DNA of 64,000 nt from a phage: the NCBI GenBank assembly GCA_018296565.1, contig GCA_018296565.1_3935.1; one strand, given 5' to 3'. Within the stretch, counting starts at the first letter, position 1. Every line of letters starts with the position of its first letter. A model generated the notes under the pieces. It was given only the letters and a program-made list of their open reading frames with translations. It did not search any database and was not told the origin of the DNA. Made by a program: the position numbers and the translations under genes. Of the stretch, positions 31,132 to 63,334 are shown piece by piece.

Positions 31132-31431
31132 TTAATCTGCCAACCTTAAATTAAAATTAACACCAAATTTTTCACAGACACCCAACATATACTCAAGAGA
31201 GACATTCCCAGTGAGGTGGATTATGTTGGATACACGAGCTTGAGAGATACCACAAATTTTAGCAACTTGCTCTTGAGAAAGACCTCTGGATTTAATCTCT
31301 CTCTTAAAACGATGTGCAACGAAATCCCTCATCTCGTCTACATCCATTGGACAAATATAACTCTCCATTTCAGCCTCTCTATCAGCCTCCCAATCATCTT
31401 GTGGAGCATAAGGGTCAAAAACCTCATTCAT
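31132..31431 (-). CDS. HTH (XRE-type) DNA-binding regulator
   Basis: Track ORF starts at a TTG at 31461; ATG at 31431 follows a ggaag RBS. C-terminal helix-turn-helix LSQEQVAKICGISQARVSNI. Confidence 0.55.
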   Translation of the reverse strand: MNEVFDPYAPQDDWEADREAEMESYICPMDVDEMRDFVAHRFKREIKSRGLSQEQVAKICGISQARVSNIIHLTGNVSLEYMLGVCEKFGVNFNLRLAD

Positions 31432-31636
31432 CTTTCTTCTTCCGTTTACGTGAAGTATCAATTAATGAGTCTATGTTTGTAGCTCTGACCTTTTCACGTT
31501 CATCATTAAGATAATCGTCAAGAGCCTTTTCAATCTGTGAATCATCCTGACAGATGACTGTAAAGACTGTAAAGCCGTCTGTATCGTCAATTATCTTACC
31601 ATAACCGCTTCTGGGATGTAACTTTTTAAGAGCCAT
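31424..31636 (-). CDS. Hypothetical protein
   Basis: 70 aa ORF, ATG start, basic C-terminus. Confidence 0.4.
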   Translation of the reverse strand: MALKKLHPRSGYGKIIDDTDGFTVFTVICQDDSQIEKALDDYLNDEREKVRATNIDSLIDTSRKRKKKDE

Positions 31637-36293: not shown

Positions 36294-38993
36294 TCAGTGA
36301 ACCTCAAGCCAACTCTTTCCAACCTTACCTGTACCAGTTACAAGTGTTTCTTTCTTAAGACCTAAGTTCTTAGAAGCTTGCCCGTAATACCAATCAGTAA
36401 CTGCTTTTACTTCTGCCGTCATACTCTCTGGACATTCCCAGCTAGTCTCATCGTGATATGCGCACAATAAGCGAGCACCTATAGCTGGTTTACGCCCATT
36501 TAGCTTCATCAACCCTTCGTCAATCATGCGACGACAAGCAAGGTTAATTGCCTCATTTTGAATCTGGGCCTCTGAACCCATCAAAAGGTAGTTCAACAGT
36601 TTGTGTGGAGATTTACACCACAACCAAGCTCCAGCAACCTTTACAAAACCCCCTTTAGAGATTGCAGCAGTCTTACCAAACACCTCTTCAAGTGCCTTTT
36701 TAGTTGCTTTGTAGTCAGCTTCCAAGTCATCTAACAGCTTCTTAATTTTAGGCAAACGTATAAAGTAAGTCTGTTTAGTCAGCGCACCTTCCTGAGTAGT
36801 CGCAGCTTTAATCGTCTTAGCAAACTTCTCATCACCTGCACCGAACAGCAGTGCATAGATACCATTCTTAGCTTTCTTACGACCTTTGCTAATCTCATGA
36901 AGAAGATTCTCATCCTGAGTAGCTCGACAAGTCAAGATGTCCTGCTCATCATTCAAGCTAAAGTAAATACTGTTCAGTGTATGTGCATCAGTCCCTGAAT
37001 AGACAACGTACAGGTCATTCTCAGAGTCATAGCGAAGGTACTTATCAATCTCTGGGTTGAGGTACTCATCAAAGTGTTTGCAGTAATAGCGTCCATCTTC
37101 TTGACGAATGAACTCAATTTCTTCTTTACCTTGCGTTACCGCTTTGGTGAAGTCTTTATCACCCATAAAGTTACAAAGTAGAACTAGCTGGGCTGAGTTC
37201 ATATCTACAGAGACAACGTTAGTACCTTCCTCACAAATCCACACTGCCCTCATTGGTTCCCCATAGACAGCAGCACCAGACGGTACGTTTACAATACCAT
37301 ATTGTGTCATACGTCCAGTTGAAGTACCAAACACCATTGCACCAGCACTAAGGCGACCATCAGGACGAATCTGGTTCAACCAACCTTTTTCATCATCCTT
37401 TGAGTTCTCAATAGTTCTGCGTCGGTGCATCAAAGTATAGTACTTAGCAATCTTCTGTCCAAGCTCACCTTCAATCGTATCATAAGATGATTCAGTAAGT
37501 TTTGGTGAAGTACGGATTAAGCAAGGCTCAAGCAAATCTGTGTACTTCTTCACAGACCAGTTATGCTCAATGTACTGTACACCTTCATGTTCAACATAGC
37601 TCAAACCACACCGCTCAACCATTTCCTGCCACTTAGGATGTTTTGTAATCATCTTTTTATTGTCTTTGAAACGACAAACTTTGACAGGGCGACCGTCTGA
37701 GTCTTTCTTGTAGTTCCAGTCATCTGGAATCCAACCAACTGATTTCAAGTAGTCTTTTACCACTGCTACCTGAGTCATACGAGAAACTTCAAACTCAATT
37801 GGTGTATATGGTGCATCAATCAATCCTGTGTAGCGACTTGACTCAAGTTCAAAGTGGTTAACAACGTGGCTGTTATAGTACTTCACAGTTTTGACTGTTT
37901 TTACTGGCTTCCAGTCTTTGCATTTCTTACCAATCTTTGCATTCAACTCATTGCAAATTGCACGAGCATCCTTCATTGCTACAAAGCCTTCCTTGTACTC
38001 TTCACCAGTTACAGAGTTGGTTGGTGTATAGCAATTTCTCTTTTCAATGTTAAAAATCTTTGTAGTTGGCTTACCAAATGGTTTGATTTCATAAGTCTGC
38101 ATCTCACCATTACGCACCTGCTGACGATACTTCGTCTTAGGGTACTTGGTAATTCTTTTCAGTCCATCTGCATGACCAAATGCTTCAACATACTCATTCC
38201 AAGCTTTTGCAAACTCTTCTCCAGTGACTTTACCTTTGGTCTTAATAGTTGGAGGTAGATGTGGTTCAACCTCTGAAGCAAGCTCATTAGTCAACTTGTC
38301 AAGTTCCTTTACATGGAACTCCATAAGCTCTTTATCAGCTTTCCAACCATTGATAGCCTGTTGACTCATCCAGAAAGATGTCTCTTTAGCTCTCATGTAA
38401 GTTTCATAAGTGTCTATGCCACACTTCTTAAGCTTGAGATACTCGTTATCAAGTGCCCGTTTAGTTTTGGCGTTAATACGGATATCTTCTACAACACGAG
38501 TGAAGATTTCTGCATTCCACACACCCCAGTGTTCAATCTCTGGTTTACGAACACCAACACGAGCACCCCATGCAGCCAAACCATGAGCACCTTTATAACC
38601 CTTTGGAGTTGGTCTATCCATCCACTGAACACGAGACTGGATAAGAGAATCCTGAAAGAAATTACTCCACGGTTTACACTTTGGATTATCAAAGTTCCAT
38701 AAATCAGGTGCAATGTGATTGAAAACCCACCAGTCATAACCGAGACCGTTATGGATGCAAAGACGTTTTGCCTTTAACGCAAACTCAATACCTTCACGTA
38801 AGCCACCCTTAATATACTTGGTATACTTGTGACCGAGGATAGGCTCATCTGTAAAGACCCATACAGGCGGCTCTTCATCGTCAGATTTATAGTCTGCGAA
38901 AGCCATTACGTGCACTTTAGTGAACTCAAGGAGTAAACCATCAGTTTCTGTATCACCAACTAAATGTAAGTTTTTAAAATCTACGTTTTCCAT
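36294..38993 (-). CDS. DNA polymerase, family A, with 3'-5' exonuclease domain
   Basis: Start taken at internal ATG (38993) with gaggga RBS. Exo I motif GDTETDGL at N-terminus; about 900 aa; adjacent to ligase and near T7-type primase-helicase. Confidence 0.85.
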   Translation of the reverse strand: MENVDFKNLHLVGDTETDGLLLEFTKVHVMAFADYKSDDEEPPVWVFTDEPILGHKYTKYIKGGLREGIEFALKAKRLCIHNGLGYDWWVFNHIAPDLWNFDNPKCKPWSNFFQDSLIQSRVQWMDRPTPKGYKGAHGLAAWGARVGVRKPEIEHWGVWNAEIFTRVVEDIRINAKTKRALDNEYLKLKKCGIDTYETYMRAKETSFWMSQQAINGWKADKELMEFHVKELDKLTNELASEVEPHLPPTIKTKGKVTGEEFAKAWNEYVEAFGHADGLKRITKYPKTKYRQQVRNGEMQTYEIKPFGKPTTKIFNIEKRNCYTPTNSVTGEEYKEGFVAMKDARAICNELNAKIGKKCKDWKPVKTVKTVKYYNSHVVNHFELESSRYTGLIDAPYTPIEFEVSRMTQVAVVKDYLKSVGWIPDDWNYKKDSDGRPVKVCRFKDNKKMITKHPKWQEMVERCGLSYVEHEGVQYIEHNWSVKKYTDLLEPCLIRTSPKLTESSYDTIEGELGQKIAKYYTLMHRRRTIENSKDDEKGWLNQIRPDGRLSAGAMVFGTSTGRMTQYGIVNVPSGAAVYGEPMRAVWICEEGTNVVSVDMNSAQLVLLCNFMGDKDFTKAVTQGKEEIEFIRQEDGRYYCKHFDEYLNPEIDKYLRYDSENDLYVVYSGTDAHTLNSIYFSLNDEQDILTCRATQDENLLHEISKGRKKAKNGIYALLFGAGDEKFAKTIKAATTQEGALTKQTYFIRLPKIKKLLDDLEADYKATKKALEEVFGKTAAISKGGFVKVAGAWLWCKSPHKLLNYLLMGSEAQIQNEAINLACRRMIDEGLMKLNGRKPAIGARLLCAYHDETSWECPESMTAEVKAVTDWYYGQASKNLGLKKETLVTGTGKVGKSWLEVH

Positions 38994-39187
38994 TTTTACT
39001 CCCTCTAAAATCATTAACCTCATACATTACTGCAAAAAATTATAAAAAGCAAGTTGACAATGCACTTGACAAGGTGTTAATCTTTGCGAAGTGGGTTTTT
39101 ACTTAAAAGGTTACTTAACAGTTTAACTATACAGATACTTTAAAACTCTTAAAAGATTATTTAATAGCTTTTAAAAAGCTTTAAAGT

Positions 39188-39207
39188 ATAACGTATAGAA
39201 TACGTTA
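39188..39207. promoter_or_regulatory. Palindromic operator-like site in divergent control region
   Basis: Inverted repeat TAACGTAT-aga-ATACGTTA about 45 bp upstream of the 39251 ATG; nearby second palindrome AGCTTTTAAAAAGCT near 39166-39180. Confidence 0.35.
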
Positions 39208-39250
39208 AGATAAAAGATTAAAACTTAATAGTTACTTAAAAGAGGCTTAC

Positions 39251-39673
39251 ATGCAGAAAATGTTTGTTCACCCAGACATAGCTGACTTTGTTAGAGCTTT
39301 GCAGAAGTTGGAAGAACTTGACATTGCTGCTCAACGGGAATATGCTCACCATCACAGGAGAATGGTTGATATACAACATGAAATAGAGTTGTCTGAAAAC
39401 TATGAAGATGACTTAAAATGCTCTGTATTTGAGCATATGAAAGATGTTGCTACAGCGAGACGTAAAGCTAAAGACACAGTTGCTTTACTAGATTCTCTTA
39501 AAAAGAGGTTGCAAAGTGGTACAGACCTGTGTAATCTAGCGTCACTGATTAACGATGTTGAAACTTCTTGGGATAGGCACTATTATCCACGTTCTGAAAA
39601 GACACTTGACTTTTCTTCATCCGAAAACTTAAAATGTTCTAGAAAGAAACTTAACCAACTGAGAGAGAAATAA
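39251..39673 (+). CDS. Hypothetical protein
   Basis: 140 aa ORF, ATG start; first gene of the + strand replication block. Confidence 0.5.
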   Translation: MQKMFVHPDIADFVRALQKLEELDIAAQREYAHHHRRMVDIQHEIELSENYEDDLKCSVFEHMKDVATARRKAKDTVALLDSLKKRLQSGTDLCNLASLINDVETSWDRHYYPRSEKTLDFSSSENLKCSRKKLNQLREK

Positions 39674-39674
39674 T

Positions 39675-40475
39675 ATGAATATCGATGTAGAAAAGATGCT
39701 TGAAGAGAAAGGTGTTGATGAAGCATTCTTAATCAATGCCGTAGAAAGCATGGCTATGATTCTTCGTGGTAATAACTACACAGAACAGTTTATGCCTGCA
39801 AGCTATAACTTGCCTGAAGACAAGTCTGATAACGGTGCTTTTGCAGAACAGGTTAATATGATGTTGACAGACACTACACTTGCTCTGGCATCTATTGCGG
39901 TTGGTGTTGATGCACTTGCTGAGTTCATTTTTTATGAAATGCAAAAGAATGACTATATCAGGATGTCAGACGAAGATAAGGAACTGTTGCTGACTAAGGA
40001 CACTGATTTCATTATTGATACGCTTATCTCATCAACGAGTGCTGTTATGGCTGTTCTTGAGAAGCGTATGGAAGAGAAACTTTCACGATATGAAAAACTT
40101 GATTGGGGCGTAGAAGAATTAAACCCACGAATCAAAGAGATTATACAGCAAACTAAAGAGTCTTTGGAAGAAGCTGTTGAAAATGACTCTGTAGCTGATA
40201 TAGAACCACTTCAGGTGAAAGTTGCACTGATGATTCCAGCTATCTCCACGATGATGAATATCGTTGCACTAATCCAACTTTCACAGATGATGGGTGTGAG
40301 TATTGAGTTCATTGAGGAGATGACTGGTGGCGTTAGTATGCAAGCAATCAATGATGTTTTGGTGAACATTGGTGCTTCAATCATTGAAGAGAAACTACGC
40401 ATTAACTTCGGTGATGATTTTGTGAAGCAAATCTCAGCTATGGCTGAAAAAGAGTCTGCTGAGCAAATGCACTAA
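39675..40475 (+). CDS. Hypothetical acidic protein
   Basis: 266 aa, highly acidic, ATG start. Confidence 0.5.
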   Translation: MNIDVEKMLEEKGVDEAFLINAVESMAMILRGNNYTEQFMPASYNLPEDKSDNGAFAEQVNMMLTDTTLALASIAVGVDALAEFIFYEMQKNDYIRMSDEDKELLLTKDTDFIIDTLISSTSAVMAVLEKRMEEKLSRYEKLDWGVEELNPRIKEIIQQTKESLEEAVENDSVADIEPLQVKVALMIPAISTMMNIVALIQLSQMMGVSIEFIEEMTGGVSMQAINDVLVNIGASIIEEKLRINFGDDFVKQISAMAEKESAEQMH

Positions 40476-41489: not shown

Positions 41490-43467
41490 AGGTCGTAAAT
41501 TGAAAGAGGCTGGTCAGTTTGTTGGTCATTGCGCATGTCCACGTTGTGGTTCATCAGATGCTGGTTCAATCTATCATCATGACGATGGTTCTTATTCAAT
41601 GACTTGCTTTAGTTGTAACAAAGGTTTCCCAGAGTGGGATTTTGATAAAGGACAAATCGTGAGCACTTATTCTACTGGTTCAGACAATAAAAACCGTACT
41701 TTCCGTGGAATGGATTTAGACGATGTGAAAGAAAACCTTGAAGCAATGGACTTGAAAGACAGGAAGATTCCTGCAAAAGTTCTTGAGCGTTTGGGTATCA
41801 AGGTTGACATTGACAGTGATGGTGAAATTGACGCGCATTTCTACCCAACTTACAAACGCAATGAAGATGGCAAGCTAGAGCATGTTGGATACCGTGTTCG
41901 TCACCGTTACCCAGAAGACCATCCAAAAGAGCACCTACGAGGTAAGTTAAAAGACTTTTCTGGTGGTGTTGGAGACATTAAAGGTGAACTGGCAATGTTT
42001 GGTTCATGGATTGCTCCAGAAGGTGGGAATCGTCTGTTCATCTGGGAAGGTGAGATGGAATGTGCCACAGCAATCTATATGACTTCTTTGGCGATTAAAG
42101 ATAAGTCTCGTCGTAAGAATTACTGTCACGTATCTGTCCCATCAGGTGCAAACATTAAGTCTATCAAAGACAACTATCAGTACATCACATCATTTGATGA
42201 GATTTACTTGTGCTTTGATAACGATGAAGCAGGTGCTAAAGCTACCAAAGAGGCTGCTGGTATCTTACCTATTGAGAAGGTTCGCTTATTCCAGTATCCA
42301 GAAGGTGTAAAAGACCTTAACGAATGGTGGACAAAGTTTTATAAAGAGAAAGATACAGTTCTGGAAGGATTTAAACAGCGTATCTATAACGCACCTCGTT
42401 ACTGCCCTGCTGGTATCAAGAACTTTGCAGATGGTTTTGAGGCAATGAAGAATCGTGGTCAGATTCCATTGATACCTTTCCCAGAATCTTTCGGGGACTT
42501 GAACAGGCTAACTTACGGTGGTTACGGTTTAGGTGAGATTACAACTATTGCAGCACCATCTTCAGTAGGTAAGTCAGCTTACACTCGTGAGATGATTTAT
42601 TCAGCTTGGAAAGAAACTGATTATAATATCGGTGTAATTCCTGTAGAAGATACCTATGAAGAGTTGATGGAGATGCTCTGTGCAATCCACCTAAGCAAAC
42701 AGATTTCTGAGATTCCTTATGATGAACGAGATTGGGATGAACTAAAAGGGGCGCACGCCGAGCTTTCAAAAGGTCGCCGCATTCATATCGTTGACCATCA
42801 AGGGGCAATTGACCAAGATAACCTGCTGGAGTTTGTTGACTATCTTGTTAATAGTTTAGACTGTAAGATTATTATTCTTGACCCTATTACGTTGGCTCTG
42901 TCACGTTCTGATACGGATGAAGAGGAAGTGTTATCTGAACTACTGCGTCGTTGCAAACGCTACCAGTATGCACAGGTGAACGTCTGTCACGTTCGTAAGA
43001 GTGCAGGCGGTCAGAAAGCTAACTCTGAAGGCGGAGACATCTCTGAAGAGGATATTAAGGGTTCTGGTGCGTATTTCCAGATTTCCATGAACAACATTCT
43101 ACTAATGCGTAACAAGGTTGACCCAGACCCTGTTAAGAAAAACTTGACAAAAATCAAGTTAACTAAGTGTCGTCGTCATGGTAAGTCAACAGGTATTGCT
43201 GGCCATACTTGGTACAATCCAGACACAGGACGTCTTATCAAAGCTTCTGGATGTGGTGTTGACATTGATGGTGCAGCAGAAAATATTCGTCAACAGTTTG
43301 GTATTGGTGAAGCTGAAGACCATTATGACGACTCTTTACCTCATTATGAAGATGAAGTGTTTGACCGTGAGACTGGTGAAGTCTATACTGAAGAACAGCG
43401 TCAAAGCTCAACGATTCCACCTGTATTAAGTGAGGATGCAGATGACTGCCCGTTTGAAACTGAGTGA
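41482..43467 (+). CDS. DNA primase-helicase (T7 gp4-like)
   Basis: Track ORF starts at a GTG at 41476; ATG at 41482 follows an aagaggtg RBS. N-terminal zinc ribbon CACPRCGSSD...CFSCNKGF, C-terminal helicase Walker A AAPSSVGKSAYT. Confidence 0.85.
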   Translation: MSKGRKLKEAGQFVGHCACPRCGSSDAGSIYHHDDGSYSMTCFSCNKGFPEWDFDKGQIVSTYSTGSDNKNRTFRGMDLDDVKENLEAMDLKDRKIPAKVLERLGIKVDIDSDGEIDAHFYPTYKRNEDGKLEHVGYRVRHRYPEDHPKEHLRGKLKDFSGGVGDIKGELAMFGSWIAPEGGNRLFIWEGEMECATAIYMTSLAIKDKSRRKNYCHVSVPSGANIKSIKDNYQYITSFDEIYLCFDNDEAGAKATKEAAGILPIEKVRLFQYPEGVKDLNEWWTKFYKEKDTVLEGFKQRIYNAPRYCPAGIKNFADGFEAMKNRGQIPLIPFPESFGDLNRLTYGGYGLGEITTIAAPSSVGKSAYTREMIYSAWKETDYNIGVIPVEDTYEELMEMLCAIHLSKQISEIPYDERDWDELKGAHAELSKGRRIHIVDHQGAIDQDNLLEFVDYLVNSLDCKIIILDPITLALSRSDTDEEEVLSELLRRCKRYQYAQVNVCHVRKSAGGQKANSEGGDISEEDIKGSGAYFQISMNNILLMRNKVDPDPVKKNLTKIKLTKCRRHGKSTGIAGHTWYNPDTGRLIKASGCGVDIDGAAENIRQQFGIGEAEDHYDDSLPHYEDEVFDRETGEVYTEEQRQSSTIPPVLSEDADDCPFETE

Positions 43468-43537: not shown

Positions 43538-43566
43538 TTGACAAAGGTTGATAGGTTCTATAGAAT
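43538..43566 (+). promoter_or_regulatory. sigma70-like promoter TTGACA-N17-TAGAAT
   Basis: gtgTTTGACAaaggttgataggttctaTAGAATgc, just downstream of the primase-helicase stop. Confidence 0.45.
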
Positions 43567-43876: not shown

Positions 43877-43905
43877 TTGACAATAGAGTATCAACAAATT
43901 AGAAT
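43877..43905 (+). promoter_or_regulatory. sigma70-like promoter TTGACA-N17-TAGAAT upstream of SSB gene
   Basis: aatgTTTGACAatagagtatcaacaaatTAGAATtgg, about 35 bp upstream of the 43942 ATG. Confidence 0.5.
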
Positions 43906-63298: not shown

Positions 63299-63304
63299 AG
63301 TGTT

Positions 63305-63334
63305 TGACAAGGGGCTTTTAAGCCCCTTAGAATA
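63305..63334 (+). promoter_or_regulatory. sigma70-like promoter TTGACA-N18-TAGAAT with palindromic spacer, between rIIA and rIIB
   Basis: gtgtTTGACAaggggcttttaagcccctTAGAATagcc; the spacer is an inverted repeat aggggc/gcccct. Confidence 0.45.

Follow-up and report, generated by a model that had tools for sequence, protein, structure and literature searches.

What is the function of the short non-coding gap that separates the DNA polymerase gene from the replication operon in Felix O1-like phages? We addressed this question in a stretch of 64,000 nucleotides of phage DNA (contig GCA_018296565.1_3935.1; hereafter the window), which comes from a Felixounavirus (Felix O1-like phage). To the left of the gap (38994-39250) lies a family A DNA polymerase gene on the minus strand, and to its right lies the plus-strand operon of gp97 (the homologue of Felix O1 gene 97), gp98, dNMP kinase and primase/helicase. 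An earlier note on this DNA had treated the gap as a divergent switch region with palindromes as likely operators, and missed its dominant feature, a conserved AT-rich leader that carries an array of CTT(A/T)A(A/C/T)AG units (CTTWAHAG) spaced by about 12 nt. Our comparison across the Ounavirinae supports the gap as a bidirectional early start region that would be read by the host sigma-70 RNA polymerase, i.e. a divergent early control region, and our leading, though tentative, explanation for the rightward promoter together with its leader is a transcription-activated replication origin.

The existence of divergent early promoters at this place had been assumed in earlier literature. The Felix O1 genome paper presumed divergent promoters for early transcription between genes 96 and 97, its authors found no promoter-like sequence in the gene 96/97 gap, and the mode of temporal transcription control in Felix O1 was given there as not known (PMC3185647). 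By reverse transcription PCR (RT-PCR), gene 96 (the DNA polymerase gene) was detected no later than 5 min post-infection, and genes 96-99 were maximal at 25 min (PMC3185647). The GenBank record of phage ASO1A (MZ726791) contains two computer-predicted promoters within the gap (method PMC10612097). The repeat array appears not to have been described before, and neither the Felix O1 paper nor the ASO1A record mentions it. In the literature that we searched, no start-site, transcriptome or replication data and no origin description were found for any Ounavirinae phage, and a preprint on a Bas63 knockout library contains no usable statement on this gap.

We compared the homologous gaps of Suspvirus, Mooglevirus, Kolesnikvirus, Yersinia phage P778, and Pectobacterium phages Wc4 and Arno162, plus 30 IMG/VR contigs; promoters were compared in 13 representatives of five Ounavirinae clades. 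Below, Felixounavirus, Suspvirus and Mooglevirus are called the three closer genera, and P778, Wc4 and Kolesnikvirus the distant clades. Chance estimates are based on dinucleotide-preserving shuffles (of the 257-bp gap in the case of palindromes and TTGACA hexamers). Over 1 kb around the control region, the sequence shares 99.8% identity with Escherichia phage Andreotti and 95% or more with over 200 Felix O1-like phages.

The rightward early promoter (39054-39083, plus strand) consists of a -35 hexamer TTGACA (39054-39059), an 18-bp spacer, and a -10 hexamer TAATCT (39078-39083) directly preceded by TGt (39075-39077), and transcription is predicted to start at about 39089-39091. A perfect TTGACA followed at 17-18 bp by TAnnnT is found in all 13 representatives of the five clades (the -10 variants among the relatives are TAATCT, TAGTCT, TAATGT, TAGGCT and TACATT). 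TGn precedes the -10 hexamer in four clades, and in Kolesnikvirus TG directly adjoins the hexamer. The promoter spacers of P778, Wc4 and Kolesnikvirus are unalignable with that of the window while the hexamers are retained, a pattern typical of a working sigma-70 promoter with an extended -10, of the type read by host RNA polymerase. The ASO1A record has a predicted promoter annotated at the same place; it pairs TTGACA with GTTAAT at 16 bp, whereas our comparison prefers TGt-TAATCT at 18 bp. The built-in promoter scan missed the rightward promoter (its -10 matches 3 of 6 positions, and the scan demands at least 4 of 6).

Just upstream of this promoter, an A-tract segment (39032-39053, plus strand) looks like the proximal subsite of an UP element: TAAAAAGCA fits 8 of the 9 positions of what we take to be the consensus of that subsite, and AAAAAGCAAG (39044-39053), immediately 5' of the -35, is invariant in the alignment. 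The segment also holds a peak of predicted curvature, with 26-27 degrees at 39030-39040 as compared to a 99th percentile of 24 for the window (our own implementation of the wedge model, using the Bolshoy 1991 parameters).

Two TTGACA hexamers 6 bp apart had been pointed out in the earlier note, and both are indeed present (39054-39059 and 39066-39071). The second lies within the promoter spacer on the plus strand, where TTGACAA occurs twice as a 12-bp direct repeat; it is invariant in the three closer genera and absent from P778, Wc4 and Kolesnikvirus. Two TTGACA are found in 0.05% of the shuffles (P=0.0005) and one in 4%. We rejected the second TTGACA as a -35 element, as no TAnnnT is found 16-18 bp downstream and it is out of register; the TTGTCA sequences on the minus strand are likewise without -10 partners. 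The second -35-like element of phage lambda is located 3' of the -10, unlike the one here, which sits in the spacer, and lambda Q-type antitermination was rejected as well. Elsewhere in the window, near-consensus sigma-70 promoter-like sites are found between genes at 43538-43566, 43877-43905, 63304-63333 and 171-199, with the motifs TTGACA-N17-TAGAAT (twice), TTGACA-N18-TAGAAT and TTGACA-N17-TATAGT. At the site at 63304 the spacer is itself a GC-rich hairpin (AAGGGGCTTTTAAGCCCCTT), i.e. a terminator-like stem nested in a promoter. The only other close TTGACA pair in the window is a tandem TTGACATTGACA at 41804-41815, in the primase/helicase coding sequence.

As the leftward promoter of the polymerase operon we propose, with moderate confidence, TTGCTT-N17-TAATGT (minus strand, 39052 to 39024; TTGCTT at 39052-39047 and TAATGT at 39029-39024), which lies back to back with the rightward -35 and from which transcription is predicted to start near 39017. 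The three closer genera all keep TTGCTT and TAnnGT unchanged, and the spacer between them is the least conserved stretch of the gap. Equivalents are found at the same relative place in more distant phages, including TTGTGT-N17-TAGACT (Yersinia P778), TTGACC-N17-CATACT (Wc4) and TTGTAT-N18-TATGAT (Erwinia vEam_W_25). Other candidates fared worse: a minus-strand TATAAT (39043 to 39038) is found in Felixounavirus only and is without a -35, so it was rejected as a conserved polymerase promoter; the single minus-strand match of the built-in scan in the gap, TTTAAA-N18-AATAAT, is not conserved; and the leftward promoter of the ASO1A record (39152 to 39126, TTAAGA-N15-TATAGT, inside the array) has a 15-bp spacer and a weak -35 and is not favoured. 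The idea of a divergent switch region stands in part: the rightward promoter is present in five clades and a weaker leftward candidate in most of them, and the second TTGACA has no -10 partner. We note that HNH homing endonuclease genes are inserted on differing sides of the polymerase gene depending on the lineage (L007:486-962, L008:465-944 and L011:485-961 in Kolesnikvirus; L001:83-595 in ASO1A). In Kolesnikvirus the HNH gene separates the polymerase gene from the control region, and the neighboring leftward promoter sequence varies among strains.

Rightward transcripts would enter an AT-rich leader (39090-39250, plus strand), which includes the 150-bp segment with the lowest GC content in the 64 kb (39092-39241, 20.7%; the next lowest has 27.3%) and the least stable 100-bp duplex (39140-39239, -105 kcal/mol as compared to a mean of -128.5 and a standard deviation (sd) of 5.1, i.e. 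about 4.6 sd off). Across the three closer genera, 70-77% of the leader columns are invariant, as compared to 40-77% in the flanking coding sequence (30-bp bins), and in all five clades the start codon lies 148-168 nt past the -10 hexamer. The leader contains neither GTC nor GAC, and it ends at the first rightward gene, whose Shine-Dalgarno sequence AAGAGG (39240-39245, plus strand) is read from the sequence and is conserved. Antitermination and termination signals were considered and rejected. The boxA consensus is GCUCUUUAACAA, with the core GCUCUUUA; only one unit, ACUCUUAAAAG (39145-39155), resembles the boxA of lambda nutL, and its CUC is not conserved (CCC, GAC and GTC in related genera), which led us to reject a boxA/nut site. 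A Rho-loading site was rejected too, the leader being poor in C and in pyrimidine-C dinucleotides.

The array of CTT(A/T)A(A/C/T)AG units occupies 39102-39242 (plus strand), with units at 39102, 39114, 39127, 39148, 39160, 39171, 39179, 39224 and 39235. There are degenerate copies among them, the spacing of the first three is 12-13 nt, and the terminal unit merges into the Shine-Dalgarno sequence. Strict copies number 6 (0.16 expected from shuffles), and an excess of the unit is also found in the leaders of Mooglevirus, P778, Wc4 and Kolesnikvirus, and so in all five clades, though these leaders hardly align with that of the window. The spacing shows the same: AG dinucleotides lie 11-14 nt apart 7 times in the window as compared to 1.9 expected (P<0.001), and with the criterion set on the window the test gave P<0.001 for P778, P=0.009 for Wc4 and P=0.04 for phiEa104. 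The first unit starts 44-48 bp from the start of the -35 in every clade, and all units that can be oriented run with transcription, again in every clade. Columns of the unit cores are invariant in 49 out of 54 cases as compared to 60 out of 100 elsewhere in the leader (P=4e-5), and the substitutions between genera land on the two degenerate positions of the unit. Judging from these comparisons, the leader is best described as an ordered array under purifying selection in five clades, and not a passive spacer.

The array seems to be confined to this place. No such array was found at any other promoter-like site in the 64-kb window, and the unit was rejected as a genome-wide promoter or terminator signal, its other copies in the window being mostly A-tracts that flank terminator hairpins. 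Nothing resembling the leader or the array was found in E. coli genomes, and in a scan of IMG/VR for three consecutive units, the hits outside the Ounavirinae were limited to coding repeats of giant viruses (PVKK), to minisatellites and to a toxin-antitoxin promoter, i.e. nothing that would point to a wider family of the array beyond the Ounavirinae. In Kolesnikvirus, a second strong promoter-like site (TTGACT-N18-TGg-TATGAT or TAAGAT) is found just 5' of the gp97 homologue (L007:1150-1200, L011:1150-1200); its hexamers are conserved between two species, its spacer differs, and two array units flank or overlap its -35. The first part of the window (1-4389) holds 20 tRNA genes on the plus strand, most of them directly preceded by ATTAAT, ATTTAAT or AAATAAAT. 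The leaders of tRNA-Arg (~380-402, CTTTCTAACAGAGTCTTTAAAGATTAAT) and tRNA-Leu (~1458-1475, CTCTAAAAAGATTTAAT) look like array units, which could be due to chance in AT-rich sequence or to a common RNA-processing signal.

What, then, could a promoter that fires into such an array do? We tentatively favour a transcription-activated replication origin made of the promoter and the leader. A more specific version, possible and less probable, is that 39054-39245 is the replication origin of the whole Ounavirinae, with the early promoter firing into an array that unwinds and recruits an unrecognised initiator, possibly gp97. In such an origin, a strong rightward promoter would lie back to back with a weaker leftward polymerase promoter, and rightward transcripts would begin at about 39090 and cross ~160 nt of the least stable DNA of the window before reaching the first gene. 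Transcription by the host polymerase would open the AT-rich tract or leave an R-loop, and the opened strand could offer a loading place and a primer to the T7-type primase/helicase and the DNA polymerase, which are encoded on either side and require a template that has been opened. The repeat units would be candidate binding sites for a phage factor, for which gp97 is a guess from position alone. What we observe directly is the promoter signature and its conservation, the extreme AT content, the array with its spacing, orientation and conservation, and the place at the strand switch; we infer the identity of the leftward promoter, the start site, every replication step and any protein binding.

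Several observations fit an origin at this place. As expected of an R-loop origin of the T4 oriF/oriG type, an early promoter is directed into the element (the promoter is read from the sequence, and early transcription of the flanking genes is seen in the Felix O1 RT-PCR), and an A+T-rich stretch suited to unwinding lies directly 3' of it, a few bases past the predicted start. The site is located at the switch of the transcribed strand and at a minimum of the cumulative GC skew, with the polymerase gene on one side and the primase/helicase gene on the other. The GC skew changes sign with the transcription blocks, being positive to ~28 kb, negative over the next block up to 39 kb, and positive again beyond it; within the window, the cumulative skew peaks locally at ~28 kb and reaches a local minimum at the control region. 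Of the features of an iteron origin, at least three regularly spaced direct repeats in the same orientation are present (6-9 units), though short and degenerate; no recognisable Rep-type initiator was found nearby, and a novel one is possible. Finally, the gp97 homologue of Kolesnikvirus has a promoter of its own 3' of most of the array, and yet the upstream promoter and the array are retained, which suggests a role beyond that of an mRNA leader.

The layout can be compared with known origins. As in oriE and oriF of phage T4, an early promoter for the host polymerase (here deduced from sequence) is followed at once by the most easily unwound DNA, and as in oriE there are evenly spaced direct repeats of ~12 nt. 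Active origins of T4 lie at transcriptional divergence and at shifts of compositional skew (PMC3016281), which is also the position of the gap studied here. Unlike T4, there is no sequence similarity, and the Felix O1-type replisome is T7-type and not T4-type: Felix O1 carries homologues of the T7-type family A polymerase and the gp4-type primase/helicase (PMC3185647). Furthermore, the repeats at T4 oriE are a 24-nt coding periodicity in gene 5, whereas the repeats here are non-coding; and T4 unwinding elements tolerate replacement, whereas the tract here is conserved base by base. Regarding T4 itself, we observed that the repeats reported by Tandem Repeats Finder in gene 5 near oriE (L046:4427-4558) represent the 24-nt (2 x 12) coding periodicity, and the "12-nt iterons" of the T4 literature at oriE may reflect a protein repeat.

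A second comparison is with T7, whose primary origin consists of the tandem promoters phi1.1A and phi1.1B, read by T7's own RNA polymerase, followed by an AT-rich region of ~60 bp and a GTC primase site. Common to both is an AT-rich opening driven by a promoter, near the genes of a family A polymerase and a gp4-type primase/helicase; the differences are that the promoter here is of the host sigma-70 type, the tract is ~150 bp long and free of GTC and GAC, and a specific repeat is present in it. As in iteron origins, direct repeats in one orientation lie by an AT-rich region; they have a promoter on one side and a conserved gene without known function on the other, which would also permit autoregulation. 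Iterons are typically 17-22 bp and near-identical, whereas the units here are 8 bp and degenerate.

Other points weigh against an origin. The minimum of the GC skew is confounded by the change of the coding strand at the same place. T4 unwinding elements need no specific sequence, which leaves the nucleotide-level conservation of the leader unexplained, and the units are short (8 bp) and degenerate as compared to typical iterons. A spacing of 12 bp is out of phase with the DNA helix, and by our wedge-model script no curvature is predicted for the array, the only predicted bend being at the A-tracts 5' of the -35. Tandem Repeats Finder reported no array. No initiator protein was recognised (gp97 is without a fold or family match). 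The leftward promoter candidate is weak, with 6 of 12 consensus matches, and some genomes have higher-scoring alternatives. The single orientation of the units, the exact span from start site to Shine-Dalgarno sequence and the merged last unit fit a role at the RNA level equally well, and in the literature that we searched we found neither start-site nor replication data for any Ounavirinae phage. We rank a replication origin first, then an RNA-level role, then operators, both of these being close rivals of the origin, and last promoters alone; the readings are not mutually exclusive.

It is doubtful, though worth serious consideration, that the array acts in RNA, i.e. that the ~160-nt AU-rich leader controls the mRNA of the replication genes and sets the level or timing of gp97 and the downstream proteins, with CUUWAHAG units as candidate binding or cleavage sites for an RNA-binding factor of host or phage, for example ribosomal protein S1 (enhanced translation or ribosome standby), RNase E-type cleavage (AG|AUU-like) or a translational repressor. 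Such a role would account for units that all point with transcription in every clade, for an array that begins ~9-13 nt past the predicted start and ends in the Shine-Dalgarno sequence, and for the conserved leader length (148-168 nt). The leader folds marginally better than its shuffles (z = -1.96), and the pairing of a hairpin at 39189-39207 (described below) is kept through two compensatory changes; a consensus fold common with the distant clades was not found, though, and the hairpin is absent there. A search of the leader with the covariance models of Rfam 15 gave chance-level matches only (E >= 0.9), i.e. no family match. The unit beside the Shine-Dalgarno sequence (UUACUUAAAAGAGG) resembles what we take to be the enhancer of the T7 gene 10 leader (UUAACUUUAAGAAGG), and similar strings (CUUUAAAGAUUAAU and CUAAAAAGAUUUAAU) lie directly 5' of two phage tRNAs; the array is, on the other hand, not repeated in the leaders of other promoter-like sites. 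In Kolesnikvirus, the separate promoter adjacent to the gene would produce part of the mRNA without the array. A known system of this kind is the translational operator of T4 gene 32, an unstructured AU-rich leader with repeated UUAAA. The leader here is similarly long and AU-rich, with UUAAA-like strings 5' of a gene of the replication module, whereas its units are spaced by 12 nt and anchored by a conserved C and G. A gene 32-type operator was rejected, as neither gp97 nor gp98 resembles a single-strand DNA-binding protein, and more generally the downstream proteins lack the similarity to single-strand-binding or RNA-binding proteins that an autoregulatory loop would call for.

Alternatively, the array and the palindromes could be DNA operators at which a phage regulator shuts down or modulates rightward (perhaps also leftward) early transcription, as an early-to-middle switch; we consider this unlikely. 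The two palindromes named in the earlier note do exist. The first, AGCTTTTAAAAAGCT (39166-39180, 7+1+7), is nearly invariant in the three closer genera, and the distant clades have palindromes of the type nnCTTwAAGnn in which the flanks are changed and still complementary. The second, TAACGTAT-AGA-ATACGTTA, is perfect, with 8-bp arms (39189-39196 and 39200-39207) and a 3-nt centre; it starts at 39189, one base further than noted before (39188). Both are invariant within Felixounavirus and kept in Suspvirus and Mooglevirus. In the stem at 39189-39207 we found two compensatory changes, a C:G pair that is T:A in Mooglevirus and a U:A/A:U pair that is flipped in Felixounavirus relative to the other two genera, and a hairpin (in RNA or DNA) or a symmetric protein-binding site could explain the stem equally well. 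Of the shuffles, 14% contain a perfect inverted repeat whose arms are 8 or longer and whose loop does not exceed 6, and 15% contain two or more repeats with arms of 7 or longer; in the 64 kb as a whole, a perfect repeat of this kind occurs at just two loci. By composition the palindromes are unremarkable at 26% GC, and it is their conservation that makes them more than chance.

The repeat at 39189-39207 could suit an operator. It is a 19-bp perfect palindrome with the geometry of an operator for a dimeric helix-turn-helix protein, and it is centred on a -10-like TAGAAT (39196-39201, plus strand); each of the five clades has TAGAAT, TAACAT or TATAAT at 55-81 nt 5' of the start codon, and the near-consensus promoter-like sites at 43538, 43877 and 63304 likewise have TAGAAT as their -10. 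This TAGAAT has no -35 match 16-18 bp upstream, and it is possibly an internal promoter without a -35, with the palindrome as a putative operator. Operators would also fit the fixed distance of the first unit from the -35 in all clades, the two Kolesnikvirus units that flank and overlap the -35 of the second promoter, and the invariant TTGACAA-N5-TTGACAA in the spacer, which shares the 12-bp period. The regulator could be a product of the operon or the XRE/Cro-type helix-turn-helix protein encoded in the leftward operon (31132-31461, minus strand; contains GLSQEQVAKICGISQARVSNIIH), a candidate DNA-binding regulator; nothing was found that links this protein to the palindromes. For a Cro/XRE operator several related copies are expected, whereas the palindrome at 39189-39207 is single-copy in the 64 kb, with no second copy at one mismatch or fewer (the next best match differs at 2 positions and the others at 3, all of them poor). 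The remaining promoter-like sites of the window have neither the array nor the palindrome, at least 9 sites over 140 bp are unusual for a simple repressor, and the palindromes are not improbable by composition, the one at 39189 being absent from the distant clades. The operator sites suggested in the earlier note are putative.

It is very improbable that the promoters alone are functional and that the AT-rich tract is a composition-driven spacer, its motif a result of AT-rich drift and shared ancestry: palindromes compatible with chance at this composition, the lack of a Tandem Repeats Finder array and similar 3-unit strings in unrelated viral contigs (the giant-virus coding repeats and the toxin-antitoxin promoter) agree with it, whereas the unit is over-represented relative to dinucleotide-preserving shuffles in five clades with barely aligning leaders, its cores are selectively invariant, the tract is conserved at least as well as the adjoining polymerase coding sequence, and both the start position of the array and the leader length are conserved.

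The extent of the gap depends on the start of the DNA polymerase gene, which differs among public records (899, 906 or 909 aa). The longest open reading frame (ORF) begins at 39023; of three in-frame ATGs, the one at 38993 is conserved across genera along with its GAGGGAG, unlike the two further upstream at 39014 and 39023. The most likely start codon is thus at 38991-38993 (minus strand; 899-aa product), with the same start annotated in related genera and with the ribosome-binding site GAGGGAG (38999-39005, minus strand; read from the sequence and invariant in the alignment), and the arrangement GAGGGAG-TAAAA-ATG is invariant across the three closer genera. Because this conserved start has a ribosome-binding site, the gap is most likely 257 bp (38994-39250) and not the ~230 bp given before.

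To the right of the gap, the plus-strand gene order is the gp97 homologue, a 266-aa protein, dNMP kinase, a small ORF, and the T7-type primase/helicase. The gp97 homologue (39251-39673, plus strand, 140 aa) is the first gene 3' of the array and was found in every clade examined. It belongs to PHROG 4039 (function unknown), and its AlphaFold model is a helical hairpin with a mean pLDDT of 71. No PDB match was found for gp97 by sequence search or by fold (Foldseek), including any single-strand-binding protein, and gp97 and gp98 have neither a Pfam family nor a PHROG function relevant to replication. The 266-aa protein (39675-40475) is acidic and probably helical, and both PHROG 4251 and many GenBank records call it "minor tail protein". 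It is part of the early replication operon, is without a Pfam family and is absent at the equivalent place in Yersinia phage P778, and the label looks doubtful.

The comparison adds a base-level promoter assignment backed by five clades and a conserved single-copy AT-rich array between the promoter and the gene. If the locus is merely a promoter with a long leader, the finding is an ordinary one. As a compact conserved single-copy element of ~200 bp, it is a testable candidate for an origin or an early control site in the Felix O1 group of classic Salmonella typing phages, which are in wide use as candidates for biocontrol and therapy. An origin or a master early switch would be useful for phage engineering and for understanding defence systems that sense replication. 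If the element does serve as the origin of the Ounavirinae, early transcription, replication initiation and autoregulation of the replication operon would be coupled in one 200-bp element.

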